Shown here: piece after piece, positions 12,701 through 58,938 of the stretch
How positions within the stretch are numbered: position 1 is the stretch's first letter
Layout of the letters: every line of letters begins with the position of its first letter
Assembly: GCF_963676685.1 (NCBI RefSeq)
Contig: NC_092346.1
Coordinates: forward strand, 20,584,001 to 20,648,000
Length of the DNA: 64,000 nucleotides
Direction of reading: 5' to 3'
Source: Mytilus edulis
Taxonomy: Eukaryota
Made by a program: the position numbers and the translations under genes
The notes under the pieces: generated by a model
The model's database searches: none
Told to the model about the DNA's origin: nothing
What the model saw: the letters and a program-made list of their open reading frames with translations, nothing else

Positions 12701-15477
12701 ACAAGTGAAGTTGAAGAGTTGGAACAATCATTGTCTGTTCCCAGATGTCCCATCCGACATCCAAAATCACGTTAACCGTTACATTCCTTAAATTATCTAG
12801 CAGGTGCCCGCGAGTCTATCGGGACATCCCAGGAATTTACGATCATTTTAAGGTTTAAGAAAGAAATGCACCGACAAGGGTCAATATCTAATTCAATACA
12901 TATAGTTGTTATATAAGTTCATAATTAAACAGATAATTTAAACGCAAATCGTACAAAATTGTAATTAACGTAAAAGTACTAGAACGTAAACATACCTTCG
13001 GACATCTTTTTGTCAGACGTAACACGGAATCATGGGAAATATGTGTAAGTCACTGAAGCATTTAATTTATTCCAATATGGGATACCTTGCATTCCACTGA
13101 TAACGTGCCTTAGAGATAAATTTACTGAAGTAGGACAAACTATTTCTACTATTTTGTTTAATTCCATATTAGGTTACGGCCTGTGATTGTAAATTTAGGA
13201 GGGAAACGACAAATGTCAATCATTGTAATGGCAAACATGATATGTGATTTAGAACCGCAAATGAATTCATGCAGTATGAAAATTATAAAATAATCACTTT
13301 ATCCACAGGGCACATGAAAGAAAGAACTTTACAGTAAAAAAAAAAAAAAAAAAAAAAATTATGAATATGTAATACTTATTTATTAACGTTAGAAAATTTT
13401 GAAAAGAACCGATAATCTAGATGTAAAATTTCTGTAAAGTGTTTAGTTTAAAATCTATCAAGTTGTTCACTTTGCTTATCTGAGATGATCTATTAAATAA
13501 ATATAGATATATTTATATACATGAAACTATAATGATTGATACATTATTTTGAATCACATGCAATAATTTGATGTACTGTGTAAGAAAGGGGGGGGGGGGG
13601 GGGGGTGTTACTTACAAAAACGAATCATACAGTCATATAATTCAAAGATATATGCAAGAAAACTGTAACTTTGGTAAGAAATAAAAGGTCTCGGTCAGCT
13701 ATGACCTGTATACAATGTCCTTGGTCACAGCTTAAAATTGGACACATATGATATATGTTCAATCTATATACATTTCCCATTTCCATTCTAAATTTAAAGT
13801 TGACTGACAAATATGATTTAATATATATAAATATAGCATGCCCAGAAGATATTCCTTCAATAACGAAGATATTCCTTCAATAACGAACTTTTTGTTGTAT
13901 GATTATGCATAAATATTTTCGAAATTCTTAAGATAAGGGGTTTTAATTTTTCAACATCCCGAAACCAAAAACTAATACCTATATAACTTCTATGTTTTCT
14001 ATTTTAACCAGCTTGATGATCATAGTTTTAAAAGACATAAACATCCTGTAACCGATAGTTTTGAATTCGTATGAATATTTTTTTTTCACATTCATGTCCA
14101 TTTGTATATCATTTACTTATTTTATTCATACCGAAAAGAAGACACCCCTTTGTGTTTGGAACCCGTCAATCTTGAACTTTAAAACGAGATATATATTTTT
14201 TAGTATATATATACTACCAAAAAAGTCTCTTGTTTTAAAATATACTTAAATACATTTATACAGTGAGATAAAGAAATTATTTCGGAATGAAAATGCATTC
14301 TTTGATTGAATTTGTAGGAAGACTACACACAAGTTGTTACTCAAACTAACTTCAATGTAACATAAGCAACATCAATTTCGATTTTTCATTTAGTAAACAT
14401 TTTATAACAACTCATAAGGTTTTCCAATTTTATAATTTCCCTTTCCTGGTCACGTCATTTCCTTTTGTTTAATTTAACAACCTTTTTGTTTTAAAACAAC
14501 TACGGAGCCCGTACCATTTCAACCCCTTAGCCTTGGCATCGAATGCAGCAATCCATGGAATCATACAGATAAAAAAAATGTTTTACTCCAATCTTTTTCT
14601 TTCAGCTTTGCAATTAAAATTGAATTCCATATTCAAGGTCATTCAATTCTCATCACTCAATAATAATGCAACTGTATCCCTAATTTCGGTATAAACATCA
14701 TTTTTGATCTATGAATTAAATGATTAAAACAATTTGTAGCGGTTTGGTCCGTTTGTTTTAACAGACTAAAGAAATATATTAAATCACATATTCGAACACA
14801 TTTTTCGAATTTCACACAAAACGAGAATTATTGCGATATGTCTGTCTGCAAGCGTATAAGAAAAATTTCGTTTCAAATTCAGACTTTTTGGGTTAAACTC
14901 AGCAAAATTTTCCGCTTCAAATTATAAATCAAAGGAATATTTTTTTTAACTTTTTTTTCAAAAAAAAGGAATAATGGGAGTTTCATTCTCTGTATCTGAT
15001 CCATGTGCAAACCTTTTTGAATTGTATCAATGTCAATGTAGTATACTTGCAGTCTAATTTTGATATGGTCTTTTCACATTTAGCGTAGCTAAAGAAAGGG
15101 TTCATATGAATATTAAAATATACAAATATTTCGAGTATTTCAATGTTCTTGGTAATATTTTTAGATATTGCGGAATGAAATAATTTTATCAATACAATAT
15201 AATGAAATTAATAAGAAACTATGATACTTGTTGATTTTATTTGTGTTTGGTTTATGAGAATAAATATCAATCATTAATTAAAACGAAACACAAAACGTAA
15301 TTGGTATTCATAGAAAAGTAGTAACAAAAATAAACAAATGTAACTAATTACAACACAAGTAACATAATTATTAAAAATAAAAACAAAATGTAATTAGTTA
15401 AATTAGAAATCCCTACCTTTACGGATTTGAAAGTTAACATACGTCGGAGTATTATCTTGTCTCTCGAATGCCATCAT
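778..15477 (-). CDS. AMOT: Angiomotin-family protein, spliced, 3' end outside the window
   Basis: Frame-consistent GT-AG exons on the minus strand: 15477-15417 (candidate first exon), 6012-5875, 5460-4776, 4008-3855, 3445-3301, 2970-2932, 2190-2045, 1457-1305, 906-778. Translation shows PPPY and PPPPEYP WW-binding motifs, the RQEPQG tankyrase-type motif, and a coiled coil (ILTDENKKLREDL..KVAILQKFELEI..YESLVQSSRKREKLE; LQAACSKREQMEKQLRTRLEKE; EKDAKILEL) matching the angiomotin pattern. Confidence 0.92.
1540..1637. repeat. Minisatellite, 19-bp unit, about 5 copies
   Basis: GGATAATCCTTCAGTTTTA repeated in tandem within an angiomotin intron. Confidence 0.9.
6968..7547. mobile_element. Non-autonomous TIR element of about 580 bp, Kolobok-like ends
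   Basis: Left end AGGAGTAGGTTCAGTAAGACCCCTTTTTGGCCCCAAAAT; right end reverse complement AGGAGGAGGTCCGGTAAGGGCCGATTTTGGCCTCAAATT. AG...CT termini with degenerate TTAA-like flanks (ataa/ttct). Confidence 0.7.
7575..11231. mobile_element. Decayed Kolobok-superfamily DNA transposon, 3.66 kb
   Basis: Exact TTAA on both sides (7571-7574 and 11232-11235). Imperfect TIR AGGGAAATTCCGCG / AGGGAAACTTCGCA. Contains an internal KolX-like pseudo-ORF. Confidence 0.75.
8866..9156 (+). pseudogene. Frameshifted KolX / nanor / P2X7-ballast-like domain remnant inside the Kolobok element
   Basis: Across frameshifts it reads CITDIDEFIIV...VHET, RLVAFRSFVC, FIVNTIR-(K)EFPSLDGEYEGFQE*. This is collinear with the P2X7 C-terminus as I recall it: CITTSELF...RHCAYRCY...IRKEFPKSEGQYSGF. 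Confidence 0.7.
12996..13005 (-). CDS. Candidate alternative first coding exon of the angiomotin gene (MSE-)
   Basis: Minus strand reads aagATGTCCGAAG|gtatgt: a strong donor in phase 1, compatible with the phase-1 exon 6012-5875. No transcript evidence. Confidence 0.4.
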
Positions 15478-16879: not shown

Positions 16880-17820
16880 CTCTAACATCGATTACTGCCA
16901 ACAATGCCATCTGGCACTTTGATTTCTGTAAACCATGTCGTCCTAGCTCCAATATGGATTACTGTAAACCATGCCGTAACTACACTCTAAAATCGATTTC
17001 TGTAGATCATATCGTCCTAGTTTCTTATATCGATTACTATATCGATTGCTGTAAATCCTGCCGCTTCTATCATCGATTACTGTAAATCATGCCGCTCTAC
17101 TCTCTATAATATCGATAATTATAAATTATGCCACTCTATTCTCTAATATCGATAACTAGAAATCATGCCGCTCTACTCTCTAATATCGATAAATATAAAT
17201 CATACGGTACCACACTCTTAAGTCGATTACTGTAAATCATGCCGCCCTACACTCTAATATCGACTGCAGTAAATCATGCCGCCCTACATTCATATATCTA
17301 AGTTTATGTACATCATGCCGCCCTAGACTCTAAAATCGATATCTGCAAATCATGCCGCCCTACACTCTAATATTGATTGCAGTAAATCATTCCGCTCTAC
17401 ATTATATATCTATTTATGTAGATCATGCCGCCCTAGGCTACAATATCGATAACTGCAAATCATGCCCCCAAAAACTCTTATATAGTTTACGGTAAATTAT
17501 GCCGCTCTACTCTCTAATATCGACTACTGTAAACCATGCTGCTCTACATTCTAATTTCGATGACCGAAACTATGCCGCCCTTCACTCTATTACTGATGGC
17601 TGTACACCATTACACCCTACCCTCTAATATCGATAACTGTAAACTATGCCACCCTTTACTCTATAGTCGATTTCTGTAAACCATGACGCCCTAACATCTT
17701 ATATCGATTACTGTAAACCATACCGTACTACATCCTTATATCGATCACTGTAAACCATGCCACCCTACACTCTAGTATCGATTACTGTAAATCATGTCGT
17801 CTCATATTCTTATATCGATA
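16880..17820. repeat. Minisatellite, about 37-bp unit, about 25 diverged copies
   Basis: Approximate consensus ATCGATTACTGTAAATCATGCCGCCCTACACTCTAAT, head-to-tail with no unique spacers. Confidence 0.92.
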
Positions 17821-18883: not shown

Positions 18884-20717
18884 TACAGCCATTCATCTTT
18901 TGTTAAAAGTAGTTAACTTAGAATCTTTACGAATGAAATATATCACAAAGAAGTTTTGAAAAATTAAGAAATGCAAACATAGATAAATCAAATCATTTTT
19001 AGTACTTTTAACAAGTATCAAATTAAATAGAAACGCGCCAAATCTAACAGAATGTGCGAAGGTTAATGATCTTGAGAATTTTATCCCACTTATGATCAGT
19101 TATTGAAAGTAAACAAATTAAAACACGTCATGAAGCGTGGTTCGTCTGCAAAACAACAGATATTGTTTTTAAGTAATGTATTTCATAAGTATGTATGTGT
19201 CAGACTTTAAACACTTGTTACTCGTATTCTTAATTAATGGATAATTTGTGTATGCATTAAAATGAAATTATTTGTATAAGGGCCACAACCAAAGATGAAC
19301 GAACGAAATATCCTTGATACAGTTTCTAGGATTTTTTTGCCTACATACTAATAAATAAATTAAACAGACAACTTACTGAGTTACTAAAAGGGTTCTTTAA
19401 TGTACAAGAAGCGTGACACTCATCTTAGATGAGGAATCGGATTTTAAAGTCCCCATTCCGATTTGACGTGGATTTGCATACATTTCGCAGAGCCAAACGA
19501 CCGCTCACTTTAGCGATGGAATGCAGTATCCCAATTTTTGACATTTATACCTATGATGTCAGTTTGTTTTGCTCAGACATTGGTTCCAATATGATGGACT
19601 GTCTTGCAAGCAAGAGGTTCAGCTAGCTGTTAAACCAGGTTTAATGAACGATTTTCTACATAAGGAAATGTATGTATCAAGTCAGGAATATGACAGTTAT
19701 TTTCTATTCGTTTGATGTGTCTAGGGTTTTTGATTTTGCCATCTGATAAAGGACTTTTCGTTTTGAATTTTCCATGGAGTTCGGTATTTTTGTTGTTTTA
19801 ATTTTTATTCCCAGACGTGAGTATGTCAGAGATGGCCAAGTCAATCTTTATGGGTTCTTAGCTTAGACGGTATTGCATGCACAGACAGTAAGGTTTCACT
19901 ATGGGAAGGAATGAATAATGGTTAACTTAACTCATTGCGAACTTTTAATTCGACCTGTTGATACTGTTTATAATGCTTTTTTTGTTATTTTTTATTTATA
20001 TGGATCTTGTCTGTACACCAGCTTTGATTATTTGTAATATCCTCAATTTTTCACTTATTCTTACAACATTTGTATAAACTTCAAGATTATAAAAAACCGT
20101 TTTTTTTTCTATAGTGAACATTGATTGGTTAAATATTTCTCAGTGTGTTTGAATTTGTTTGTCAGCTTTTTGGTCATGAATGTTTGTCTCTAATATTTAT
20201 CTAACTGTGCATTTGTATTCAGATATCGCAGATCAAATTTATTTCATTGTTTAATCATACGTTTTTTGATTGAGTTAAGTCTGCCAATTGATATTTTATC
20301 GTATGTTTTTCTATGTTGTGATGTTATGCTATTGTTTCGGAAAAAGGGAGAAGGTTTGGATCCATTAAAACGTTTAATCCCGCTGCAAATGTTTGCACCT
20401 GTCCTAAGTCAGGAATCTGATGTACAGTAGTTGTCGTTTGTTTATGTAATATATACGTGTTTCTCGTTTCTCGTTTTGTTTATATAGATTAGACCGTTGG
20501 TTTTCCCGTTTGAATGGTTTTATACTAGTAATTTTGGGGCCCTTTATAGCTTGTTGTTCGGTGTGAGCCAAGGCTCCGTGTTGAAGGCCGTACTTTAACC
20601 TATAATGGTTTACTTTTTTAAATTGTTATTTGGATGGAGAGTTGTCTCATTGGCACTCACACCACATCTGCCTTTATCTATATAATAGTTATCAAAGGTA
20701 CCAGGATTATAATTTAG

Positions 20718-20764
20718 TACGCCAGACGCGCGTTTCGTCTACATAAGACTCTTCAGTGACGCTC
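20718..20764 (-). ncRNA. Type I hammerhead ribozyme, intact core
   Basis: Minus strand reads GAGCGUCA-CUGAAGA-GUC uuaugua GAC-GAAA-CGCGCG-UC/UGGCGUA: CUGANGA and GAAA core, stems I and II, palindromic stem III. Confidence 0.85.
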
Positions 20765-21072
20765 ATATCAAAATATTTATAAAGCCAAACAAGTACAAAG
20801 GTTGAAGAGCACTGAGGATCCAAAATTTCAAAAAGTTGTGCCAAATACGGCTAAGGTAATCGATGCCTGGGATAAGAAAATCCTTAGTTTTTCGAAAAAT
20901 TCAAAGTTTTGTAAACTAAAAATTAATAAAAATAACCATATAAATGATATTCATGTCAACACCGATATGCTGACTACTGGGCTGGTGATACCCTCGGTAT
21001 CGAAACGTCCACCAGCAGTGGCATCGCCCAGTGGTGTACATAGTTATCAAAGATACCAGGATTTTAATTTAA

Positions 21073-21119
21073 TACGTCAGACGCGCGTTTCGTCTACATA
21101 AGACTCATCAGTGACGCTC
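21073..21119 (-). ncRNA. Type I hammerhead ribozyme, intact core
   Basis: Minus strand reads GAGCGUCA-CUGAUGA-GUC uuaugua GAC-GAAA-CGCGCG-UC/UGACGUA. Confidence 0.9.
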
Positions 21120-24100
21120 AGATCAACATAGTTATCAAGCCAAAATAGTACAAAGTCGAAGAGCATTGAGTAACCCAAATTCCCCAAAATTGTACCAAAT
21201 ACGACTAAGGTAGTCTATGCCTTAGTTTGTTTTTCATAAAATTCAAAGTTTTGTAAACCAAAAAATTATAAAAAATGACTATATAGTTGATATTCATGTC
21301 AAAACTGAAGTGCTGACTATACCTCGAGGACGAAACATCCACCAGCAGTGGCATCGCCCAGTGGTGTACCTATTTTTTTTTTAAGGATTTTAATTAAAGC
21401 CGCCAGACGCGCGTTTCGTCTACATAAGACACATGAGTGACGCTCAGATCAAAATACATATGATGTTAAAAAAGTACATAGTTGAAGAGCATTGAGGACT
21501 GAAATTTCCCCAACATTGTGCCAAATACGGTTAGTCTAGGCCTTGGATAAGAAAATCCTTAGTTTGTCGTAAAATTCAAAGTTTTGTAAAAAGGAAATTT
21601 ATAAAAATAACCATATAATTGAAATTCATGTCAACACTGAAGTGCTGAGTGACTACTGGGCTGGTGATACCCTGGGAGACAAAACGTCTACCAGCAGTGG
21701 CATCGAACCAGTGGAGTAAATAGTTATAAAAAAAGTAGTAAATAAACTCATCATAGATACCAGGATTGAAATTTCCAATTTACGCCAGACGCGCGTTTCA
21801 TCGACAAAATACTCACCAGTCACGCTCGAATAAAAAAATAAAAGATAAAACAAAAATATCACATCACAGGAGAAGTAGTCCTCATTCCTAAATAGACATT
21901 GTCGCTGTCTTTTAATATATAGATATTTGCTTTATGGAAATATCAAAATGACAATACGAAGATATGGTATGATTGTGATTTGTCAATAAATCAATTATCC
22001 ACCAGAGACCAAATGACGTAGACATAAGCACTTTTGACAACATAATATATCTTTACACATTTAAATACTAATACACATATCATTATTATGGTTTTATAAT
22101 AGAGTTTATAATCTTAACTAACTTCGTACTGTATGACCTTTATCTATATCTTGAATTGTGATTTTATAGTACACCTACAATTTTACTAGGTATAAATAAA
22201 ACGTGACATAAGTTTTACATGCATGAATTTTTCCAATGTGTAGAGTTATGTTATGTTGATAAATAAAATATATCAAAACTAGCAGGTTACCCAGTTTTGT
22301 AGTTGTGAAAATGAAACAATTTGTAGGAAATATACAAAGTTCACGTGAAAAGAACGAACCATAAATTATTGAACTTTAAAATTAGATGTAAGAAGATAGA
22401 TCTTACATTTATATAAAATGTTTTAAGAAACTGAAAAGAAACAATAACAAAAAAAGTACCTTTTTCTTTGCTATATAACAAAATAAAATAAAATACTGCG
22501 CATTTCTTTACCAAATATAATTACCGAATTTTCTCCACATATAAAGCAAACTTTAAACAAATGATTAAATAAACACAATTCTGGTAAATGGTACATGCAG
22601 TTGTTATTATGAGATTAAATCAAATAATATTCTGAGTTTACATAAAACATCTGACACAAATGAATTGCATCCTTAAAAATATGCTTACTTGAATAAAAAA
22701 AAAGTGGACCGATCATTTGCTGCTATATCCAAGATGGCGAATGCTTCCCCTTAACTAATCGTTTTGGTATGAGAAGTTGTCATCCTAGACCAAAGCATGC
22801 TAATGAGAGTGTCTATAATTAAATTGATATGAAATAAAAACAAATAAAACTGGAATATAATCGGGTACCATCAGTCGAAAAAAAGACACATCCAAATTAT
22901 TTTTGCAAAAAAATCCGCTCAAGCCGTTGCTAGGGGTCGTCTTAAACTTGCAGTGAGGTGAGAAAATGTGTTCCCCGTGTTGAAGGCCTTACTGTGACTT
23001 TGAAATGAAGTACAGCAATTACAGTCCTGTTCTTTACTTTTTGTGTGTTTTTGTTTGCTGAGCATATACAGATTTTTTATGTCATGGATTGATACCCAAT
23101 ACCCTTTGATTTTCTATTTAATAACGCCAAAGATGAAAGTCAAATGTGTTGCATTTTCTAAGATCAGAAATGAATATGTCTGTACTGAATGTACAAAATC
23201 TTTTTATGGAATTTTAATATTCAATAAACTGAATGGGCAACATATATACATGTATGTGTATTTAAATTTCACAAAAAATGCCAAAAGCACAAGAAAAAGA
23301 TTGTTTCACAAAACCTCTCTAGGGTAAAAGAAACCTCAGGTTAACAAGTGCATAGGTATAATGCGGTGAATAAAAATGACAATAACAAGATCACGTAATC
23401 GGGTATATATGAGTACGTGTACTAATATCTACTAAGAGGATTAACAGTCTGGTATTTATGTTAAATATGTCCTTTAGACCAACGTTATATTTCTAAGTAG
23501 GGTTTAATACCGGTGATTTGGATAACAGATGAGGTAATGACTATGTCTATATACAACAATAATACAAGTGTTCTGCGATTCTCTTGCAATTTCTGTTGTC
23601 AAAATATATATACTTACGACAAGCATGAATAGCAGAAGTCCAACTCAGTTCAATACTGGTGAAACTGATAAGCCATGCACGATTACTACCATTAAAGTCC
23701 ATTGAGATAAATAAAAACTTCTGATACATTCAGACTAATACTTGTATTTTTTCTTTCATCATAGTCTGAAAGCTTCATTCTTTTATTTACCATGTTTTTT
23801 TGGTTGCCCGATGGGCGTGATTACTCGTGAAGTGTACACTGAAATTGGTATCGTACATTACAATACTAAAACCGAGTCGGTAACACTGCTGATTGAATGT
23901 TAGTACACGAGGGAACATTGCAAGCAGTAACCAATAATTGGCATTGCCATAAACTTATAAACACGGAGGTTATACCACTTTGTAGAACCAAGTTACGTTC
24001 GAAGTGAAATTGGAAGTATTAGTCAACATTGTTTAAGTACCCAAAAAAAGGAAAACATGATGATGGATCAACAATTATATGGAAATACAGAAAAAAGACG

Positions 24101-26923
24101 CAATTAATTTCATGTCAAAATCCACAATTTCAAAACATCTCCTGAAAGTGTTTCGAACAGCGATATACTACTGTTGCTTTTATCCTGCATCTGGACAATT
24201 TGACATAATGGCACTTTCAAACCACCATTTTCTACATTAGGAAAGCCTCTACGAATTCAGGAATATGAAAGTAGTTTTCGATTCGTTTGATGTATTTGAG
24301 ATTTTGTTTTTGCCATCTGATAAGGGACTTTTCGATATGAATTTGAGTTTGTTTTTGTTATTTTACTTTTTCCTGTTTAATTCAAAACAGTTTATTTTTT
24401 TAGAACATATAAGAATAATTTAAAGGAGCAAGATAGTGTGAAGACTATATTTTCTTATATGATATGTGTCTTCATTCGGATTTCTGTTATAGAATTGTTT
24501 GTTACAAAGTTAAGTTATGCTTACAAACGCGCGACGTATGCAGCACATTGTTGTATTAGTTTTTGCAATTCCATATGGACCTTATCTCTAGGTGACCCAT
24601 CTATCCAACCGTTCTTTTCACTCATGTTGTTTGAAAGTTCAGTGTTGATTAGTACAACTTTTTAGATGAATGTATTCAATGTATTCTTACATACTTTTGA
24701 TTTTTTAACCCTGTATGCTAACATTCCCATGAAAATTTTAAAATTGTTTGTACGCACATTGAACGACAAATTTATGTGACGTATAAAATTTTCTGACGTC
24801 AGACACTCAATAAATGTGTTCGTAGATAGTAGATGTTTTTGTGTTCTGTTAAATTGTTCCTTTTAAAATTGTTAAACGATGATGTCTGATGTACCCATAT
24901 TTTGACTATTATATTTATTGTGTCTGTTTATTTAACGCATCAATGTAAAAATATCGGAAATTGACGAGACTGTCATTACAAAAGTGAGAGGGTTAGCGCT
25001 ATAGAACCAGGTTTAATCCACCATTTTCTACATTTGAAAATGCCTGTACCAAGTCATGAATATGACAGTTCTTGTCCATTCGTTTTTTATGCGTTTTGTT
25101 ATTTGATTTTGCCATGTGATTATGGACTTTCCCAATTGATCTTCCTCTAAGTTCAGTATTTTTGTGATTTTACTTTTTTCAAGACACTGAATATTGTTCA
25201 TCCGTACACAATATAGGATATCGTTTTCCCTGATTCTTTCGTAACGTCTAGCATGACAACAAAAGTGCGAAAAAACTTTCGAAAATGAGACAAACTCCTG
25301 ATACTATTACGGTGTCAGACCACCAATTCAAAATCCCTATCTATTGAACCAAATTTTGCATTTTCACAGCTTTCTTAAAATTGTACCGTTATTTTAAGTT
25401 ATTAGAATCCAGGTATGTCTTGTATTGTACATGTATCACCTTTCTACCTTTTTCTTTCACCTAAAGTTTCATTTCCGGAAATTTGTTGGTTAGTTTAAGT
25501 AATTAAACAATGACATCAAAAGCACTATTTTTTGTCTGTGTAGGGCTTCTTTTACATACGTTCTAAATTGAATGGGGCGAATTGGTGATCTGACTCCTGT
25601 TTAAAATATTTTACAACAAGGATACACTGCATATTGCAAAGTTTGGTGATAGATGTTAAGAAGTCACAAAAAGAGGTAAAACTATCAACGAACAAAAATA
25701 AACTCATGGTAATAAATTGATTGATTTCAAAATTTATGAATTAGCAAGACTTACATGGATGTAATCAATTTTCTTATAATCTTAGTTGTACTTTGGTTAA
25801 GAATGAACAGGCATTTACAGTATAGAAAACATCTCTATAATGTCCAAGCGACTTTAAGTCAAACATAAGCGTACAAAATGTTAGCAAGACAAGTCCCTGC
25901 ATGCAATACGACCAGTTGTAGAAGCTTATGTATAGATTATTATATGGTTAACAATTTAACATAAAGTGATGCGTACCATATACTATCAACTGGATGAAAA
26001 CTTTTCACTGGATTTTTATTGATTTTAAACTTCAGTCTTGTTTAAATTTGTCATATAAAAGTAGACAGTTGTCAGACAGAGACAAAAATTACAATATATT
26101 TTTATAAGGGGAATAAATAAAGGTACCAGTAGTATACTACTGTTCAAAAGTCATAAATTGATTAAGAAAAAAAATCCGGGTTACACACTTAGTAGTTGTC
26201 AAAGATACCCGGTTTATATTTGATACGCCAGAAGCGGGTTTCGTCTTAATTAAACTCATCGGTGACGCTCAGATCAAAATAGTTAGAAAAAGGAGGGATA
26301 CACACGAACAAGTAAACAAGTGTAAAACATAAAAAACATTGAACTTTCCTGTCTCAGATTAATCATAGAAATTGTTTTAAGATGCATGATTTACAGTGTA
26401 CTCAATTTATTCACCTCAGACAATCTGTTAAATCACATGAAAACACTTACAATAATAATCTGAAATGGCAGAGTAAAAGATTCAAACAACACGTTTTTGA
26501 TTTTATGATGATTAAACAACACTATGGAAACAGTTAAAACTGGTGATACAAACTAAAACAACATCGTATATAAATCGGGCATATACGACGAAACAAATAC
26601 AACAATTATGTGCATATCTTTTTTTCTGTTGAGCCAAAAACAAAGATCTGTTTAAAAACAACTGACGAGATATCCGGAACTGAAACTATAGAATCTAATG
26701 AAACACACATTATAATGAAACTTTTTTTTGAAAATCGGTTGAAAATAAAGACACATATTCAGCTATTAATTCAAGATGATGGGACAATCTCATTAAAGAC
26801 CACTAAAGTTCGCACACAACTGTTTTAGCCGACGAAAACTTCTCAAATAAAGTGCGACATATGTGTACATCTGTTTTAACTAAAGATATCTCTTTATTTG
26901 GCCTTTTAAACTTTTTTGAATTC

Positions 26924-26970
26924 GAGCGCCACTGATGAGTCGTTTATAGACGAAACGCGCGTCTGGCGTA
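26924..26970 (+). ncRNA. Type I hammerhead ribozyme in a dispersed retrozyme fragment
   Basis: GAGCGCCA-CTGATGA-GTC gtttata GAC-GAAA-CGCGCG-TC/TGGCGTA; stem I GCGCCA pairs with TGGCGT. Confidence 0.88.
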
Positions 26971-30371: not shown

Positions 30372-31000
30372 GAAAGATACCAATACCTTGTTGATAAATA
30401 TTCCGTATCAACTTCACAAATAATACAATATGGTCCTGAAGTATAGATTCTAGGTACTGACGTTGTTTGTCATCATAAGTATGTGTTTAAGGTGTCTTTT
30501 AGTTGTCTTTGTAAATCATTACTTATACTGTTTAGTCGATTTGACATGGCTGGGTGCTTCTACATCTCGTCATTGTGTTATTGTGCTATGGTAAATTTTT
30601 GCATTATTGTCTTTCGTTTTTTCTAGTGTGCTTTGTCTCTATGCATTTTTATTTTTCTTTGATGACAGACATATTAGTTTGTTCCTATATTGATTAAGAT
30701 TAAACACACAATGTTGACTGCTCTACTTATATTTTTGTCTATTATGTCGGTTTGTTTTGTTCACACTTTGTTGCCAATGTAAAAGAATTTTATGCGACTG
30801 TCATACAAGTTATAGAGGTTTAGCCAGTAATAAAACCAGGTTTAATATACCATTTAAATAAAATATCTGTACCAAGTCAGGATTATGACAATTGTTATCC
30901 ATTCGTTTGAAGTTTTGGGGCTTTTGATTTTGCCATTTGATTAGGAACTTTCCGTTTTGATATTTACTCGGAAATCGGTATTTTTTCACTATACTTTTCA
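30372..31000 (+). mobile_element. 3' fragment of a Penelope-like-derived dispersed repeat
   Basis: Encodes RYQYLVDKYSVSTSQII, similar to RYKDIIRKYSSTCRLLI in the PLE at 56 kb, followed by a UTR with the TGTACCAAGTCAGG box. An inverted sister copy lies at about 31935-32580. Confidence 0.65.
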
Positions 31001-31934
31001 CAGAAACAGGGGCTCGAATTCCATAGAGGGAAGAACAATAACGTGCTACTACAAATTGCACTGGCGTTAAGTTTAGATTGTTAAAAGAAAGAAGAATGAA
31101 ATAGCTGCTATTGTCAACTTAAATTTGAAGCAATGCTTGATTCAGTGATGGATGTTTGCTTAATGTCCAGTGACAAATATTTCAAGACGAGATCAAATTT
31201 ATAATAAAATTGATAGCGTTCCTGTGATAGAGGCCGTCCATGTTGAAGGTCACAGAAATATGGACTACCACTAGAAAATGAGGATATATTAGATAGGTAC
31301 AGAAAGTTTGCTCTGCAACAGGACACCTACTTATCCTTAAAGTTGTTAAAAATGATAACGATGTTCTCTCTACACGAGGCATCTGGTTCAACTTTCCATT
31401 TCTGACCTGACTTAGTGGCATTGTTAAACATCCTATACAACCAGCTGGACATCCAACGTTGGTACTGGTTTAAACGCTAGTGGGGAGAAAAAAATGATCA
31501 TATTTCTATTTCGCAATCACCTTTTGGAAACAACAGTTTCGATAAAATGTACATGGGCATAATGAAGTAATGATGAATTTGGCCAGAACCAACTTCATCA
31601 CACATAATTTCGTTGATGGAGTCAAAAGAAGAGCGATGCATGAATACATTGAAAATTCTGAGACGTATTTGGAAGACCAATAGACATGGCAAGTTACAAG
31701 ATATGCTTTTACTAGCATTCAAGATTACCACAATCTCAAATCATTATCTTATTCTAGTATCATAACTTAACAACAAACAACATTTTTATAATACATTGTA
31801 ATAAGACATAATTTAAACATGAATTATAACGTAATAAATGAAGTTTAAAATTCAAAAGCTGATTCTGCATTCAAATATTCTTACAAGACAATTTATTTTA
31901 ACGGGGTTATATTGTTTTCTTTTACGAATATATA

Positions 31935-32580
31935 TAAAGTAAAATAACAAAAACACCGAACTCCGAGGAACATTAAAAACGGAAAGTCCCTATTCAAATG
32001 GCAAAATAAAAAGCCAAAACACATCAAACGAAAGAACTGTCGTATACCTGACTTGGTTCAGACAATTTATGTTAAGAAAATGGTAAAAAAAATCTGGTTC
32101 TATAGCTAGCTAAACCTCTCCCTTGTATAACAGTCGCAAAAAATTTCAATAAATTGACAACGATGTGTGAACAAAACAAACACAAATAATTGGTAAATAA
32201 AACATAAAACAAGGGGTACAGCAGTCAACATTGTGTTATAATCTTCAAACAAACAAATATGTTAACAAAGAAAAACAAAAAGGCATACAAATAAAGAATA
32301 TTAGCAAAAACGAAAGACAGGAATACAAAAATTTACTATAGCACAATAACACATTCACGGGATGTATAAGTACCCAGCCACGTCAAATGAATATGACAAA
32401 AATTTTACTTACCAGTAAAAATATAGACAAATACAAAGACAAATAAAGTAATAATATAACACTTTATTAAGATGATAAATAACTTCAGATCCTAGAATCT
32501 ATACCTCAAGACAGTCGTTTATTATTTGTGAAGTTGATACGAAATATTTATCAACAAGGTATTGGTATCTTCCGATGAAC
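31935..32580 (-). mobile_element. Second, inverted copy of the same PLE-derived repeat
   Basis: Reverse complement aligns with 30372-31000, e.g. GAAGATACCAATACCTTGTTGATAAATATTTCGTATCAACTTCACAAATAAT. Confidence 0.7.
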
Positions 32581-40272: not shown

Positions 40273-43200
40273 ATGAAAATCCATGCGTTGGCATTATGTG
40301 CTATTTTGCAACTTCCTTTCTGTTCGAGCCTGTCTGTTGAAATTTTGAAGCCAAACAATACCGGACCAGAAGCTGCACTAATTATCGTTCCTGGAGCGTA
40401 TATTTCAGGATCAGCATATAAACCTTTAGGTAAGTTAACGTATAAGTTTGAATTAGGGGTGATTACTTGAACAAAACAAACCTGTAGTTCAGACTGCAAC
40501 GAGTTGTAATAGAACACAATACTGAGATTTAAAAGCCACAAAAGCATTTTTTGACTTTTGATCTTGGAAATATAGTTCTGATATTGAACTAGATTAATTA
40601 AGGTAACGTGATTTGATAAAGGAAACGTTGATATGATAAAAGTAAAAACGGTACCAAACAATTCTTACATTCCTTTTGGTATTAACCCCCCTCTTTCCCC
40701 CCAACCTTTTTCCTTTTTCAGACTAGGTAACACATAACAGTAACTTACAAACTAGAACTGAGTCAAAACACAACAGAAAACTTTCTTTATAATTCAAGTA
40801 AAATAAGTTATGACCTTTGACATGAGCAAATAAAAAAATCAGTGCCTCTATGCAAATAGAGATCTGGGGTCTAGTGCTACGCATGGTTTTGGATGATCAT
40901 GGATCATAAAGAGGTTTAAAATGAGGAATCGCTGTCCCCCTTTAAACAGTTTGAAAACACAGGCTTTACTGAGTTATCTAATTCGCAAAATTATAATGGC
41001 AAGGTTTGAAATATTTGCCATAAATTGAGAAATGCATTTTCTTTACTGATATATATTCAAGTAGTATATTCTGGTGAGGGATTGAAAATACCTCTTCGGT
41101 ACTATATTATCGAAGCACGTCAAGTTGTTGTTTTGATAAAGTGCTTCATTGATATATTTATATGAATAAGAACTTTTATACATTTGTTCAGGCGGAAGAA
41201 TCATGGAGGATGCCGTTTTAAGCATTTAAGCAAGTTTCCACCAAATAATTTATTGGGCAACGGGCGACAAATGATATAACTTGATTCACTGTTAACATAA
41301 ATACGTTTTCTCAATACTTTAAAACTATCGATTTTATGATTGTCTTTTTTTTTATTTCTTCAGTAAAATCAGATTTTTGAATAACAGTGATTTTCCCCGC
41401 AATTTTAACTTTAATTCTAAGTGAAAACGAGAACTAAAGTTTCAAACCACTTGTACTTATAATAACTCTATGTTATAATTTACTTTCTCCTTTGCGTGCG
41501 ATACATTTATAACTTACTGCTTAGCTATAACTTACATTTTTTTCCACAGCCGAAGTTATTCAGAAGAATAGTAATCTGAAATTATGGGTTGCCTTACTAG
41601 ACGGATTTTTTAATAAACTTGCTAACCCACTCCAACTTCCTATAGTATTTAAAAAAGCTGTTAATGAGTTACAAAAGGCAGGTTATAAAGGGAAGAAAGT
41701 GTTCTTGGCTGGACATAGTCTTGGAGGTATGTACATTATAATATAACACTGTATTTAAAATTATTGATAGCTAAATAAATATTTGATTGGTTTAGAGTAG
41801 TACCCAACGTGACATTGAACATCAGATCCTGACTCTAAACATCTATCTTGCACGACGTAAAGCGAGGTGAATTAAGATATTTTTAGCGTTTAAACGCCTT
41901 CACACAGCGAACTCATTGTCAATAGTATGAGTTTTAAAAGCTTATTCATGATATAAATATTTAGATATTGATAATACCTACTGTATATGTGAAATGAAGA
42001 GTTCGAACCAGGTACGAGGCAGATTTGTGCGTTTTACGTCTTACTTGACTAGGATATTACTTGACTAGGATAGCGACTTTTTCTGCTGAAGGGTGTTTGT
42101 TCTCTACGGGTACAACGGGTTCCTCCACAAGTAAAATCTGACATATTTTGCATAACGTGGCGCTAAAACATCAACAGATAAATCAAACATGTATATTATA
42201 AAATTAAGGCATAGGAAAAAATTGCATGTTCTGAGAAGATTAGTTAAACGTTGAATTGTAGTGCTAAAAAAATCTATCAGACCGAACTTAAAATAGCCAT
42301 ATCCTCTTTTTTATGTTGAATTATCACCAACTATATGTGAAGTTTAATTATAGGTGAAGTTGTAGCCCTTTATGGACAAAAAGCGAACCATATTTTAGAT
42401 GGAGTGTTGTTATTCGCATCTTACATTACCAAGAACAACAAACTAAAAGAGTATCCATTCCCAGTTCTGACCATAAGCGGAGACCTAGATGGATTAACTA
42501 GAATAACAAGGATCGTAGATACATTCGAGTGAGATTAATAGACGCTGTTTGTTTTTTTACTTTCATATACTGTTTAATTAATGTGTAAGTTTTAAATGTC
42601 CCTCTGGTATCTTTCGCCCCTGTTTATAACAGCAAATATAAGCCATGCAATAATAGCCATATAAATGGAAAAAAAGTTAAAATAAAAAAAATAGAAATAA
42701 CATTGTTAATACATTTTAAAAAAAAATTGCTATACATTTTTATGAAAACGACTTACTAGTGATAAGAATCCTGTATGGAACCATGTATAACGTTAACAAG
42801 AAAGAACGTACTTGTTCAGTAAGATCCATTAAACACATTTTATAGCAAAGCGTATCAGTTGTGAAATAAACACGGCAAAAAAATGCGCCATACGGCTGAC
42901 ATTTCAGTAAAAAAAACTATAAAAATAATTGTCATTGAAAATCTGAGATTGTCCATTTAGCGTATTTTTCATGTCATCTTGACTATATTTTCCAATAATG
43001 CAAGGTTTGAAAAGGGCAATATTTTATTTTTTATTTTCAGGGAACTCCAAGAAGACGTAAAAAGCGATCCAGAGCAAATATACAGGACACCTGTAGTGGT
43101 AATGGAGAGCATAAATCATGGACAATTCGCTTCGGGTCCGTTACCCAAACCTGTAACTGACCACGATCTAAATCCAGAGGTATCTCAATCTGTAGCATAT

Positions 43201-45897
43201 AATACCATAGCTAATTACTCGAACGCTTTCATGGTAGTCATCAGAAATGAAACAGATACCAATGTAACGAAAGCCAAAAACAACTTAGAAGACGGTCATA
43301 CTAAAACTGCTACAATGATGCAGGTGAATATAATTTTATTTTTTTGTTTAACTGTTGTTGATCTTGGTTTCCTTTTTCCTAAGCGAATGTTTTTATGTTT
43401 TTTTCGACTAAAGATGGTTATACTTTGTACTTGTGTCTGATAAGGATCTTGCTTTCACATTTTTTGTTGGAATTAAAATTATAGGTTTAGTTCGAATCAA
43501 ATTATTCTTTTTAATATTCACGTTTATACTTCAATCAAATTATTCTGTAAAAATTAATGTTTTAATCTGTTAATACATTTAATTGTATTTTGAACATGCC
43601 ACCGCTTTAGAAGCGCATTAATTATGTTGGTATCATTTTAGCCTCTCTCGAAAGTGAAAGCTCTTGATCAAAATCCGGATTTTACCTCACACTGGACTAA
43701 CACTGCTCAAGAACTCGTTGTCAGTCTGAAAAATATAACAGATGTTGAGGTAATAATTTTTTTTCAGTAGAACTGTTAAAGTAGAAATCAATCACTTTAT
43801 TGTTAGCAGAAGATAAGCCATTTGTCATGATCTAAGTGGATTGTATCCTACAAAAGTATTTGATGTGTACGTAAAATGCATGAACAAAAATACCGACCTC
43901 CAATAATTCAACGAAGGGGGAGTCCATATAAGCTGACGAAATCTCCACTGTATCAATTAAGGGCACGAATGAAAATCGATTGTCTTATTCCTCGCCTGGT
44001 ACAGACAGTAGTTTATAGTTATATTGACAAAATTGGGTGAGCTATCAGAACCTACAGATTTGTCAAACGTGGCAGTTAGTGGGATCTGGGAGCACAAACT
44101 GTGTAAGCATATCACAGAGACTTAAAACATACAAAGACAATCTGACATAACCGTCATAAATGAATAAATGAATAAATGAATGGTTGAGCAAGTAGGTTTC
44201 CATAATAAATTCTGAATAGGACAACGTCAGACGAATAATAATTATGCATACACGCAGAACGTTATAAATAGTTATCAAAGGTACCAGGCTTAAAATTTAA
44301 TACACCAGACGCGCGTTTCGTCTACATAAGACTCACCAATGTCACTATCAAAATAGTTATACATCCAAACAAGTACAAAGTTGAACAGCATTGAGGACCC
44401 ACAATTCCAAAAAGTTGTGCCAAATACAGCTTAGGTAATATATGCCTGGGATAAGAAAACCTTATTTATTTTGAAAAATTCATACCTTTGTAAACAGGAA
44501 ATTTATAAAAATGACCATATAATTGATATTCATGTCAACACCATCTTGGCTTTCAAATATTCGGCTTTGAGCAATCCTGGTAAAGATCAACCCAAAAAAG
44601 TGCTTCAGAAGCATAAAATTTATAACGTGTTGTGTTTTTTTTTTCTTCATTAAAAGACTTTTTTCACTATGATTTATATGTTATACACTTATACACTTTT
44701 ATCAAAACTACAAACGTGAAAAGCGTTTTTGTTCAAATTGAATTAACCTCTAATTTATTAGTTTATCAACTACGAAGACGAATCACTGGACATTTTACCA
44801 AAGGAATTACCTGTCTTACTTCCGTCAGATAATGTAAAAATTGAAAGTTTAACAACTTTATGGATGCAACCAAATCCTCTAGATTCAACTACATCTCCTC
44901 TGAGTCCATTACAACTCAAAGCAACAATGAAAAGTCAAGAGGCTGTCAAAACGATTTTACCCTCCAGCCAATTCGGAATATCGGCATCCTGTAAAGAAGT
45001 CAACCAGGTATTGTCAGACCTATTTTTTCCCAACGAAATTATGTTATTATCAAATATGAACGGTATCTTTATTAACTATGCAAATGATTCTTAGAATAAA
45101 TGTTTGGTAATTAAAAGGAAAGGACAAATTGAAAACAACGGATTTGGTAAAATATCTGTTTGGAAACTGCAATTTGTAATTAAACTATCGCCGAACACAA
45201 AGTTCAGACAACAGAAATAATAGAAATAATTTATGACTGACAGCTAAATCGTCGGCAATACACAGGAAAAGGTACATCATGAACTTGAAAGAGTATTCTG
45301 CTCCGCGTTAGTCACCCGTCTTATTGTTCCGTGATCAAATTCAGGAACCTTTATTAAAGCGGGAATGTTTAAATCGACAGGTAAGGCAATTCTGTTTGTT
45401 TTTGGTATGGCCTCTTTTAATTGAGTTCTCTGCTTTAAATATTTTTCAAGCAAGGTTGTTATTTTTAATGATCCATCTGTAAAAAAACAGATTCAAGGAT
45501 AGTATTTAAAACATTGTATATATGAATGTAACATAGATTGTGACGTATACTTTATTAAAGACCCAATATGTTTTAGAATGCTTATGAACTAGCCTTTGCC
45601 AAATCGTCACCGATCGCAAAGGAAAGGTACACATCAAGAGGAAGACAAATAGTATTCAATGAGGACGTCAGTGTTTCATCACAATTTCAATGGATTAAGT
45701 CACAATTAGATCTCAACTATAATCAAACAGGTCTCTTTGTAACAGCTACCAGATTCCATACTGATATGAGTCAGCCAACGAAAAGCTATTCTGGACAAAG
45801 TGATTGTACTTTGATATCGCCATTCAGAGCAATGGAATGGATTTATATCGATTCTCTAAAATATACCAAGTCACAAATAGAATCTAATACTACATAA
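40273..45897 (+). CDS. Secreted alpha/beta-hydrolase-fold protein (Abhydrolase_5-like), 488 aa, 7 exons, intact catalytic triad
   Basis: Exons 40273-40429, 41550-41726, 42354-42528, 43041-43323, 43642-43749, 44762-45007, 45577-45897; all GT-AG, 1467 nt open. Signal peptide MKIHALALCAILQLPFCSS, oxyanion loop IVPGAYI, nucleophile GHSLGG, acid GDLDG, histidine NHGQF. AATAAA at 45961. Confidence 0.9.
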
Positions 45898-53800: not shown

Positions 53801-56800
53801 GACTTGATGGAGTGTTGTTGTTTTCATCGTTCCTCAGCGGAAGTTATCGGCTGAACAATTATCCATACCCAGTTCTTACAATTAGTGGGGACTTAGACGG
53901 AATAACGAGAGTAACCAGAATGGTCGATGCATTCGAGTGAGTGATTTTTTGTTATTATAATGATAGTAGTTAGGTAAAATGAAGTTCCTTACATATTCGA
54001 TTAACACGATCAATACATTGTTGTTCTGTGAAATAACAGCATCTAACGTGCGATACTATAAAAATTTGACCTCAGATGAATTTGGCTATGCCTTTAATGT
54101 ATCTTGATCTTTTAACGCCTTACGTTTCTACGCATTTATACATCACTGACTTTCAATTGTTTAAGCTTGAGAATACGGAAGAAGGTAAATATATATAAAC
54201 TACGAAATTTGTTTTACATGCACACGTATAAAAATTGCGGTTTTCATCCAACACAATCATAGGTTTGAACGTAGTTTTCAATTTAGACTCGTTTATATTT
54301 TTTCGTTTGGACTTGTATCATATTTTCCATCCGGTTTATATGATCCGTTCATCCTACATTGACTCTTAAAATTCAAGAGTCTATCTAAAAATGAGGGTAC
54401 TTTTTATATGGCCTTCCAAATACCGTTTCGATCTCTAACATCACTGAAGAGACATTTATTGTCGAAATCCGGATCTGGTGTACTAAAAAGATATTGACAT
54501 CGTGGCCACAAGTTGATTTTTTTTCTGTTTAGTATTAAATTTATATTAAGATCCATTTTGTTACATCTTGTGATCAATTTTATTTGGCAATCGCCAATGG
54601 CAGTCAGCAGGGTTAAAGAACATCAGTTGTTCGACCTGTTAGTCAAATGCGTTTTGTTTAAATAGACGCTCATATCAAAATAGTTATAAAGCCAAACAAT
54701 ACAAAGTTGAAGAGCATAGATTATCCAAAATTCCAAAAAGTTGTGCCAAATACGGCTAAGGTAATCTATAAACACTACCATTTTTTTAATTTATAGGCAG
54801 TGAAAACCGAAATATTTTGACAATGATATATCAAATTTACGTTGGAGTATATGAATCATGTGTTAACAAAATAGTAATTCATTTATTTTCATATGAATAT
54901 AAAACTTTTGAGCATTTTATTGTAATAACCAAAAGAATTTTTTTCATGTTTTTGTGTGTTTTGGGAAGTAAAAAATAATAACTGATATTTATACGAAAAT
55001 TACAGTTTTATAAACTCGGCTTAATTTATAGTTTGTTAGTGCATTGACCGAAAATTAGTAAAATAGTACAGTAAAAAAAAGTAAAAATAATGTAGAAATT
55101 TGAAGAATCGTGATATTTGTATCTAATCTCGAACGATACAATTTAGATTTTCTTTTTCACTTCTTGCCTTTTCATTGATTTTATTACATTGCCTACTCAC
55201 TAACTTACTAATTTTGCACGATTTCATCAAACATTAAAATTGAGAATGGAAATGGGGAATGTGTCAAAGAGACAACAACCCGACCAAATAAAAAACAACA
55301 GCAGAGGGTCACCAACAGGTCTTCAATGTAGCGAGAAATTCCCGCACCCGGAGGCGTCCTTCAGCTGGCCCCTAAACAAATATATACTAGTCCAGTGATA
55401 ATGAACGCCATACTAATTTCCAAATTGTACACAAGAAACTAAAATTAAAATAATACAAACTAACAAAGGCCAGAGGCTCCTGACTTGGGACAGGCGCAAA
55501 AATGCGGCGGGGTTAAACATGTTTGTGAGATCTCAACCCTCCCCCTATACCTCTAACCAATGTAGTAAAGTAAACGCATAACAATACGCACATTAAAATT
55601 CAGTTCAAGAGAAATCCGAGTCTGATGTCAGAAGATGTAACCAAAGAAAATAAACAAAATGACAATAATACATAAATAACAACAGACTACTAGCAGTTAA
55701 CTGACATGCCAGCTCCAGACTTCAATTAAACTGACTGAAAGATTATGATTTCATCATATGAACATCAGGCACAATCCTTCCCGTTAGGGGTTTAGTATCA
55801 TACCATCATAACATATATGAGAAGAACATAACCCGTGTCATGCCAACAACTGTTTTTAGAATAAATGTGTTTAGTTCCGATGCAAAGACCTTATCAGTGA
55901 CTCAATATTAACGCCAAAATATGCAATCTTTAATGACTTGACAACAGTATCGTAATTATATCCCTTCTTAATAAGTCTATTCAAAGGTTTTGTAAGTTTC
56001 TGAGGTGAATACTAACACCTTTGTGCTTTATAAAGAATATTACCATAAAAAATTGGATGTGAAATACCTGAACGTATTAGAAGTCTGCATGTTGAGCTAT
56101 ATTTACGAATGATGTCTTTATACCGATGATAAAATTTAGTAAATGTTTTGACTAGTTTGTGATATCGAAAACCCTGGTGTAATAATTTTTCAGTAATACA
56201 TAAATTTCTCTCGTTAAAATCGAAAACATTGTTACATTAACGAGCGAATCGTACAAGTTGAGATATATAAACACCGTAAGATGGTGACAAGGGAACGTCA
56301 CCATCTAAAAACGGATAATTAACGATAGGAAATGAAAAATCATCCCTTTTATCATAAATTTTAGTATTCAGCTTTCCATTAGTGATATAGATATCAAGAT
56401 CGAGAAAAGGGCAGTGGTCATTGTTAGTATTAGCTTTATTTAAAGTAAGTTCAACAGGATAAATTTCATTAATATACATACTGAAGTCGTCATTATTGAG
56501 AGCCAAAATATCATCCAAATATCTAAAAGTATTATTAAATTTGTTATTCAGATGTTGTTTCGATGGGTCTTTGCTTATTTTTGTCATTGTCTCCATTTAA
56601 ATTAAATTTCAGAGAGCTGGAAGCAGATTTGATACTAGCTCCAACACAAAAATTCACCACACCTGTAATTGTAATGGAAGGTATGAACTATGGACAGTTT
56701 GCATCTGGTACACTTCCACCAGCTGTAGCGGGTTATGACTTGAAACCAGAAATTTCCCAAAAAGATGCATATGATGCTATAGCTAACTACACGAATGCAT

Positions 56801-58895: not shown

Positions 58896-58938
<43 letters not shown>

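Follow-up and report, generated by a model that had tools for sequence, protein, structure and literature searches.

A window of 64,000 nucleotides from the Mytilus edulis genome (contig NC_092346.1, positions 20,584,001 to 20,648,000 of the forward strand; "the window" refers to this whole stretch) carries on its minus strand an array of hammerhead ribozyme motifs, which belongs to the published Mytilus family of retrozymes without long terminal repeats (non-LTR retrozymes). Our analysis indicates, with good though not firm confidence, that the array is a composite, partly decayed copy of such a retrozyme with one predicted excisable unit that is likely a silent or minor RNA source, and that the family is likely copied by the reverse transcriptase (RT) of a Naiad Penelope-like element. 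Somewhat less strongly, we favour the view that mussel retrozymes parasitise the hammerhead-free Naiads, in which case a captured Naiad 5' hairpin would set the RT start about 8 nt upstream of itself on circular RNA. The more interesting element is this family-level hairpin link; the retrozyme was already known, and the locus is ordinary and in itself minor, a worn copy among thousands of a described element.

The insertion end and a hairpin shared with Naiad-2

The earlier note on this DNA had described a hammerhead retrozyme array of the mussel family, and this description was sustained by the host, unit size, GC content, copy number and family structure, which agree with the mussel non-LTR retrozymes of PMC7229834 (available, like the other papers cited here, in part), given there as about 5000 ribozymes in repeats of 350-390 bp with two related ribozyme families. 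A genome search with the 355-nt unit of the array gave 5243 first-look candidates, and the best 40 of these yielded 143 matches, many of them full 355-nt units (88-93%) lying head to tail on contigs C1-C14. The family occurs as high-copy, dispersed dimers to multimers on many contigs, and many of these arrays are cleaner than the present one. Three unit families were distinguished, with lengths of 354-356 nt (A), 364 nt (B) and 350 nt (C). The C family has the core CUGAAGA and the stem III palindrome AUGCGCAU, is about 70% identical to the A unit, and consists of copies 98-99% identical to one another.

The insertions have one fixed and one ragged end. Among 25 A-type segments, 20 end 40-46 nt past the last cleavage site, and the 5' ends are variable; the B family ends near +45 (a value biased by the presence of the tail in the B query) and the C family near +34. 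In all three families, the insertion end lies about 6-9 nt before a conserved hairpin (offsets counted from the sequences). Since the end offset differs among the families while the distance to the hairpin holds, the end appears to track the hairpin and not the cleavage site. In addition, an end past the cleavage site requires a circular or uncut multimeric template, as a cleaved linear monomer could not template it. A fixed 3' end with variable 5' truncation is what would be expected of a non-autonomous partner of a Naiad. No convincing target-site duplication was found in 53 segments, where the matches were short, of low complexity or overlapping. We also considered the tail-to-tail arrangement of the array with its flanking repeat (Table 1) as a general feature, and did not retain it; direct adjacency at the fixed end was found in 1 of 52 other segments (L009), with one further case of an insertion interrupting the two.

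The search with the retrozyme unit returned, unprompted, a match of the hairpin to an intact Naiad (E 7.5e-4), which we call 'Naiad-2' and which encodes 1053 aa with an N-terminal GIY-YIG motif and CxC, DKA and RT motifs; its ORF lies on the minus strand of contig C5 at 1351366-1354527. The hairpin at the 5' end of Naiad-2 aligns with the retrozyme hairpin except for a 24-nt insert, and it was the sole sequence shared between the Naiad-2 5' locus and the retrozyme unit. Across the 12 stem pairs compared between the two, six are unchanged, three are changed on both sides and three on one side, and all of them pair. In 16 of 19 cases, fragments of the Naiad-2 3' end break off 0-9 nt ahead of the stem, so that retrozymes and the autonomous Naiad-2 have in common a cis element at the same position relative to the 3' end. 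A hairpin model built from retrozymes only matched seven of seven Naiad-2 loci and none of nine Penelope-like loci with a C-terminal endonuclease. The same model matched no Naiad-1 element, the other Naiad of this genome considered here, among five compared (one match was a retrozyme remnant in a flank). Similarity to the 3' end of the autonomous element itself, as in the non-autonomous Chlamys, was not found, the array having no match to Naiad-1 3' ends.

Several points weigh against these readings. The hairpin is present in 20 of 20 retrieved Naiad-2 loci, which were retrieved by similarity to that very region and are near-identical, so that they count as one observation. The local alignment score of the retrozyme segment with the Naiad-2 hairpin was reached by none of 2000 shuffles for each of four segments, the segment having been chosen post hoc and the shuffling done by two-letter blocks. 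On Naiad-2 the model scores weakly (E 0.013-0.28) and places the outer stem out of register, owing to the 24-nt extra hairpin there. The very abundant Naiad-1 has no sequence match to the hairpin (at the one 5' junction compared, 831-1882 of 2000 shuffles score as well). The hairpin homology could record ancestry or capture and not present-day use, and both cleavage and transposition of the retrozyme are here predictions. Finally, the array was assigned to the published family by the description of the published clones (MN642551-MN642576), not by alignment to their sequences.

From the literature on the family, read-through transcripts would self-cleave after GUC and the monomer would be ligated, probably by RtcB, into a circle; in mussels, abundant circles were detected on northern blots and ligation by RtcB was obtained in vitro (PMC7229834). 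We infer that a Naiad enzyme may then bind the hairpin on the circular or multimeric RNA, that target-primed reverse transcription would begin about 6-9 nt 5' of the hairpin, and that the RT would run back across the cleavage junction and fall off at a variable point. A fixed start with a variable fall-off would produce arrays with one fixed and one ragged end. If this is true, the helper enzyme and the cis signal for transposition of an animal retrozyme are both named, and Naiads themselves would be copied from circular or head-to-tail RNA. If the hairpin link holds, the 70-nt hairpin and a specific intact open reading frame (ORF) make the helper question a direct binding or priming experiment, and offer a way to study where Penelope-like elements begin copying.

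A different helper, of the kind proposed for Xenopus, would be a hammerhead-bearing Penelope-like element of the Neptune type, which might have mobilised the family or given rise to it from its terminal repeat, the arrays then having expanded by unequal crossing-over. The genome does contain Penelope-like families whose endonuclease is C-terminal, whose ORFs are intact (784-959 aa) and which carry minimal hammerheads, placed in two of them 45-60 nt before the 3' end, and homology between terminal repeats and retrozymes is described in frogs (10.64898/2026.07.22.740005). However, a search of 30 GIY-YIG loci (30 of 150 scored matches, from 858 candidates) and five longer stretches revealed no unit sequence in common, the matches being stray retrozyme insertions or having E >0.1, and the retrozyme hairpin model, as given above, finds none of the nine C-terminal-endonuclease loci. 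Moreover, Neptune-type elements mostly end in (TA)n, against 1 of 77 retrozyme ends. We therefore regard a Neptune-type helper as quite unlikely, and a Naiad remains our preferred candidate. Terminal-repeat homology of the Neptune type was found in none of the 35 stretches examined.

Two observations on the elements themselves may be recorded here. Several families with a C-terminal endonuclease have, close to the 3' end, hammerheads that are minimal or atypical, with cores such as UUGAAAA, and these families are mostly inserted in (TA)n. In the window, Naiad-2 3'-end fragments lie at 19648-19807, 24222-24374, 25018-25178 and 30860-31001 on the plus strand and at 31933-32084 and 51636-51778 on the minus strand, and all stop at about one fixed point.

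Structure, age and expression of the array

The minus strand of the window has four type I hammerhead motifs, with the cleavage-site C at 21788, 21406, 21080 and 20725 and successive distances, counted from the 20725 site, of 355, 326 and 382 nt (Table 1). This arrangement, and the two intact cores bounding a segment of exactly 355 nt (21079-20725, GC 37%), had been pointed out in the earlier note and were recovered by our motif search. The cores are CUGAAGA (20.7k), CUGAUGA (21.1k), CUCAUGU (21.4k) and CUGGUGA (21.8k); the A at core position 7 of the first is a natural variant and the standard in the young, related C family. A scan with the Rfam model Hammerhead_1 (RF00163) matched 20719-20762 (34.1 bits, E 3.3e-6) and 21074-21117 (33.8 bits, E 4.1e-6, slightly below the 34-bit cut-off), and did not match the 21.4k and 21.8k copies, whose cores had correctly been called mutated. 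All 11 helix pairs can form in each of the two intact-core copies, against 9 of 11 in the 21.8k copy. The sequence GAAACGCGCGUC, which includes the palindrome ACGCGCGU noticed earlier in stem III, is kept in all four copies. By motif, the pair at 21080 and 20725 is what Li et al. 2026 take as an 'active' retrozyme, namely two successive units that each have a complete hammerhead. Within the 355-nt unit there is no sense-strand frame of 90 aa, and the retrozyme segments show no LTR layout.

Table 1. Positions of the array, its parts and other mapped features in the window
Feature	Position	Strand	Basis
Entire composite insertion (fragment of a B-family end, three units of the A family, tail of 40 nt)	20684..21843	-	BLAST boundaries against real family units; alignment
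Type I hammerhead with CUGAAGA core (intact), cleavage predicted after 20725	20719..20762	-	Rfam 34.1 bits; 11/11 pairs
Type I hammerhead with CUGAUGA core (intact), cleavage predicted after 21080	21074..21117	-	Rfam 33.8 bits; 11/11 pairs
Hammerhead, dead core CUCAUGU, GUC site and palindrome intact	21400..21443	-	Motif search; double-hammerhead fold with 21080 copy, 25/26 pairs
B-family hammerhead, core CUGGUGA, broken stem II	21782..21825	-	Motif search; pairing check
355-nt chimeric A-family unit, break near 20915	20725..21079	-	Alignment to A1 majority
326-nt decayed A-family unit, internal deletions, about 85% to majority	21080..21405	-	Alignment
382-nt span, about 50-nt B-family tail and 5'-clipped decayed A unit	21406..21787	-	Alignment
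40-nt tail, stopping at the fixed 3' end of the family	20685..20724	-	BLAST boundaries
Hairpin homologous to Naiad-2 5' hairpin; 1-nt deletion, disrupted apical helix, predicted refolding	20971..21038	-	Alignment, folding
Second hairpin copy, broken by 13-nt deletion	21299..21368	-	Alignment
Third hairpin copy, largely intact	21650..21718	-	Alignment, folding
Abundant repeat flanking the array tail to tail, 3' sequence Naiad-like; mapped part only	20345..20683	+	Repeat comparison
First coding exon, longest angiomotin isoforms	15418..15477	-	Protein mapping
5'-truncated young Naiad-1 Penelope-like element with SECIS-like element in 3' untranslated region (UTR)	55228..56587	-	Sequence comparison

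The array is composite. A fragment of a B-family end is combined with two A units that have decayed to about 85% identity with the majority, and with a last unit whose 5' half is old and whose 3' half is young. The distance of 382 nt given in the earlier note is correct, but it does not represent a true unit; it is the junction of a B-family end with an A-family array. The possibility that this span is a genuine B monomer was rejected, since B units are 364 nt long and its body, with 76.9% identity to B and about 84-85% to A, is of the A type. Within the 355-nt unit, the 5' 164 columns are 88.4% identical to the A1 majority (19 differences) and the 3' 190 columns 97.9% (4 differences; Fisher p 3.4e-4; a contrast this strong in 2 of 200 permutations). 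Divergence in the older spans is likewise somewhat higher on the 5' side (80-82% against 87-88% identity), which is not so in young copies (97.9 against 98.4%). These contrasts suggest that the 3' end of the array was later replaced in register or extended by a young copy. The array likely grew stepwise, in that an old A array stood beside the B end before a young copy overwrote or extended the 3' end in register.

The locus appears to be among the more decayed copies of the family. The three spans are 93.5, 84.6 and 84.3% identical to the family majority, against a median of 96.9% for 61 other distinct monomers, which are the top matches of a search and hence lean young, and the spans differ from one another by 17-21%. 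No near-identical progeny of the locus was found among the best 40 of the 5243 candidates, the best other copy being 93% identical, and this absence fits the damaged hairpin of the 355-nt unit (deletion and broken apical helix).

Folding with ViennaRNA gave near-zero probabilities for the 2-bp stem III at the locus and in family copies alike, so that the single-ribozyme probabilities, near zero everywhere, cannot rank activity. When a nested double hammerhead of the 21080 and 20725 copies was forced, it came out 5.3 kcal/mol above the free ensemble, whereas two single ribozymes came out 18.2 above it, and the 21406 and 21080 pair similarly favoured the double form (6.7 against 19.3 kcal/mol), these energies being predictions without tertiary contacts. 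The preference was alike in the three family copies tested. The monomer folds modestly better than its shuffles (z -1.9, 3 of 100). In a double hammerhead, as in the newt and viroid model, the core of one copy cuts the site of its partner. Partner-core cutting means that the dead-core site at 21406 could still serve as a substrate. Neighbouring copies are thus likely to cleave as a double hammerhead through the palindromic stem III, as far as folding models can tell. The palindrome had been called suited to dimeric cleavage; dimer folding through it is indeed favoured in silico, but the prediction points to a property of the whole family, and dimers are probably not obligatory, because a single-ribozyme mussel clone is reported to cleave alone (PMC7229834).

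To look for RNA from the locus, three RNA runs, of which 6, 6 and 18% were read, were compared with the unit at 97% likeness, as was one contig set. At the diagnostic site 20752, 416 of 421 reads have a base other than that of the locus, and at most 5 of 421 have the locus base; depth is zero across 20917-20964 in all three runs. Reads of the family span the unit junction in all three runs (21, 20 plus 13, and 4), where circle and uncut multimer are not separable, and these reads skip the first 53 nt of the locus or show the family base at 21053. No locus-specific junction read was found in the three RNA runs. Because none of the 23 junction 40-mers of the locus occurs in the other loci compared, a circle from the locus would have been recognisable. 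The retrozyme family is transcribed, and RNA from this copy was not seen in the three runs. Silence is not proven by this, which counts against that part of our overall reading: the runs come from other individuals, which may lack the allele, between 6 and 18% of each run was covered, and library preparation can lose small circles.

The earlier note had presented the locus as a notable source of circular RNA, and this was not borne out for a decayed copy with no locus-specific RNA in the three runs. The locus could be an active source of a 355-nt circle through read-through transcription and double-hammerhead cleavage, given the two consecutive motif-intact ribozymes, a double-hammerhead fold with 26 of 26 pairs whose cost falls within the 3.3-13.4 kcal/mol of the three family copies tested, and the abundant circles made by the family (PMC7229834). 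However, besides the near absence of the locus base in reads, the zero locus-specific junctions and the zero depth over the most locus-specific stretch, near-identical progeny are lacking among the best 40 candidates, and in vitro cleavage was obtained for only 1 of 9 dimers predicted in Xenopus (10.64898/2026.07.22.740005). We consider such activity unlikely, though not to a negligible degree, and prefer the interpretation that the one 355-nt unit, predicted to be excisable, is likely a silent or very minor RNA source.

Surroundings of the array

The minus-strand gene next to the array is angiomotin. PF12240 has one match in the genome, at about 1299-1436 of the window, and a Mytilus edulis protein maps exon by exon at 96-100%. 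As the earlier note had stated, the array lies about 5 kb upstream of the first exon on the same strand; this holds for the first coding exon (15477-15418), at a distance of 5.2 kb. A candidate alternative first coding exon was observed at 13005-12996 on the minus strand (Met-Ser-Glu followed by a GT donor), matching isoforms of three Mytilus species, as judged from isoform starts among 15 of 27 cluster members. One could imagine that the array was co-opted for the control of angiomotin, with its ribozymes cleaving read-through RNA from upstream or a long first intron. It is proximity alone that suggests this, the ribozymes being on the same strand, 5.2 kb upstream and intact in two copies. 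However, proximity is expected where at least 8 other fragments of the family lie in the window in both orientations, the intact cores are in or beside the young part of the array, and both mapped first coding exons (15477 and 13005) lie downstream of it. We consider this role very improbable.

The other retrozyme fragments include 5'-truncated copies at 26926-26969 (+), 50110-50245 (-), 44265-44542 (-), 26193-26289 (-), 54665-54769 (-) and 59462-59572 (-), and C-family copies at 54439-54475 and 23842-23913. The single copies at 26.9k and 50.1k retain intact cores.

Remnants of a Penelope-like RT, which the earlier note had connected with the array, are indeed present in the window as a Naiad-1 fragment (Table 1), but they share no detectable sequence with the retrozyme hairpin, unlike Naiad-2. 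The remnant is 34 kb from the array and is itself only an RT end; longer copies, 98.8-99.1% identical to it, have the N-terminal GIY-YIG, the CxC and DKA motifs and a C-terminal RT. Naiad-1 was rejected as a helper identifiable by sequence, as it matches neither hairpin nor array; it may have a structural analogue. In one locus (L078), a 3'-truncated Naiad-1 ORF runs directly into a C-family retrozyme in the same orientation, either by insertion or by a template switch. Judged from its sequence, the Naiad-1 family looks like a selenoprotein family: an in-frame TGA lies eight residues past the DKA motif in 17 of 17 copies reaching the site (three of 20 stretches do not include it), where Naiad-2 has Cys, and the window fragment has a match to the selenocysteine insertion sequence model SECIS_1 at 55755-55819 (32.3 bits, E 2e-4, below the 35-bit cut-off). 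The available part of PMC8557442 gives such Naiad selenoproteins for two clams and two spiders, with Mytilus not among them.

Two further features were noted. A diverged tandem array of about 20 copies of 37 nt, with higher-order periods of 74 and 111 nt, lies at 17039-17820 between the retrozyme and angiomotin. At 42961-45897 and 56539-60129, frames resembling exons point to a gene on the plus strand that has an internally duplicated region, and the Naiad-1 fragment abuts one of these frames. A Pfam scan of 10 frames of the window gave no match above the cut-off.

Relation to known retrozymes and Naiad elements

We found no publication stating a hairpin shared by Naiads and retrozymes, a search on which subscription journals and supplements may bear. 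A 2020 review describes metazoan retrozymes as having no known conserved motif pointing to a helper retrotransposon (PMC7761336, available part), and the words hairpin and stem-loop are absent from the available main text of PMC8557442.

The closest known system is that of the Mytilus galloprovincialis non-LTR retrozymes (Cervera and de la Pena 2020, PMC7229834), which share the type I hammerhead, units of about 350-390 bp arranged in tandem, a low GC content, copy numbers in the thousands, the presence of related families and a mussel host. The copy described here is composite and decayed, and we distinguished three unit families (355, 364 and 350 nt) where two ribozyme families are given there; the fixed 3' end and the Naiad-type hairpin do not appear in the available part of that account. 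The satellite 2 retrozymes of axolotl and newt share tandem units of about 330-350 nt, a short palindromic helix III and dimer cleavage; according to PMC7229834, the amphibian ribozymes require dimers, whereas the single-ribozyme mussel clone self-cleaves at about 0.1/min.

The vertebrate non-LTR retrozymes (Li, Clavereau, Pollet, 10.64898/2026.07.22.740005) are likewise non-autonomous tandems tied to Penelope-like elements, and the two-ribozyme definition of activity applies to both. The available part of that work covers no mollusc and tests terminal-repeat homology in Xenopus alone. In contrast to Xenopus, what is shared here comes from the 5' start of a hammerhead-free Naiad and is a hairpin rather than a terminal repeat with a ribozyme. 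Naiad elements (Craig et al. 2021, PMC8557442) share with the mussel retrozymes the fixed 3' end, the 5' truncation and the head-to-tail tandems. They encode an N-terminal GIY-YIG endonuclease and an RT and are described without canonical hammerheads, whereas the retrozyme appears to encode nothing; in both Naiad-2 and the retrozymes, a homologous hairpin follows the fixed end.

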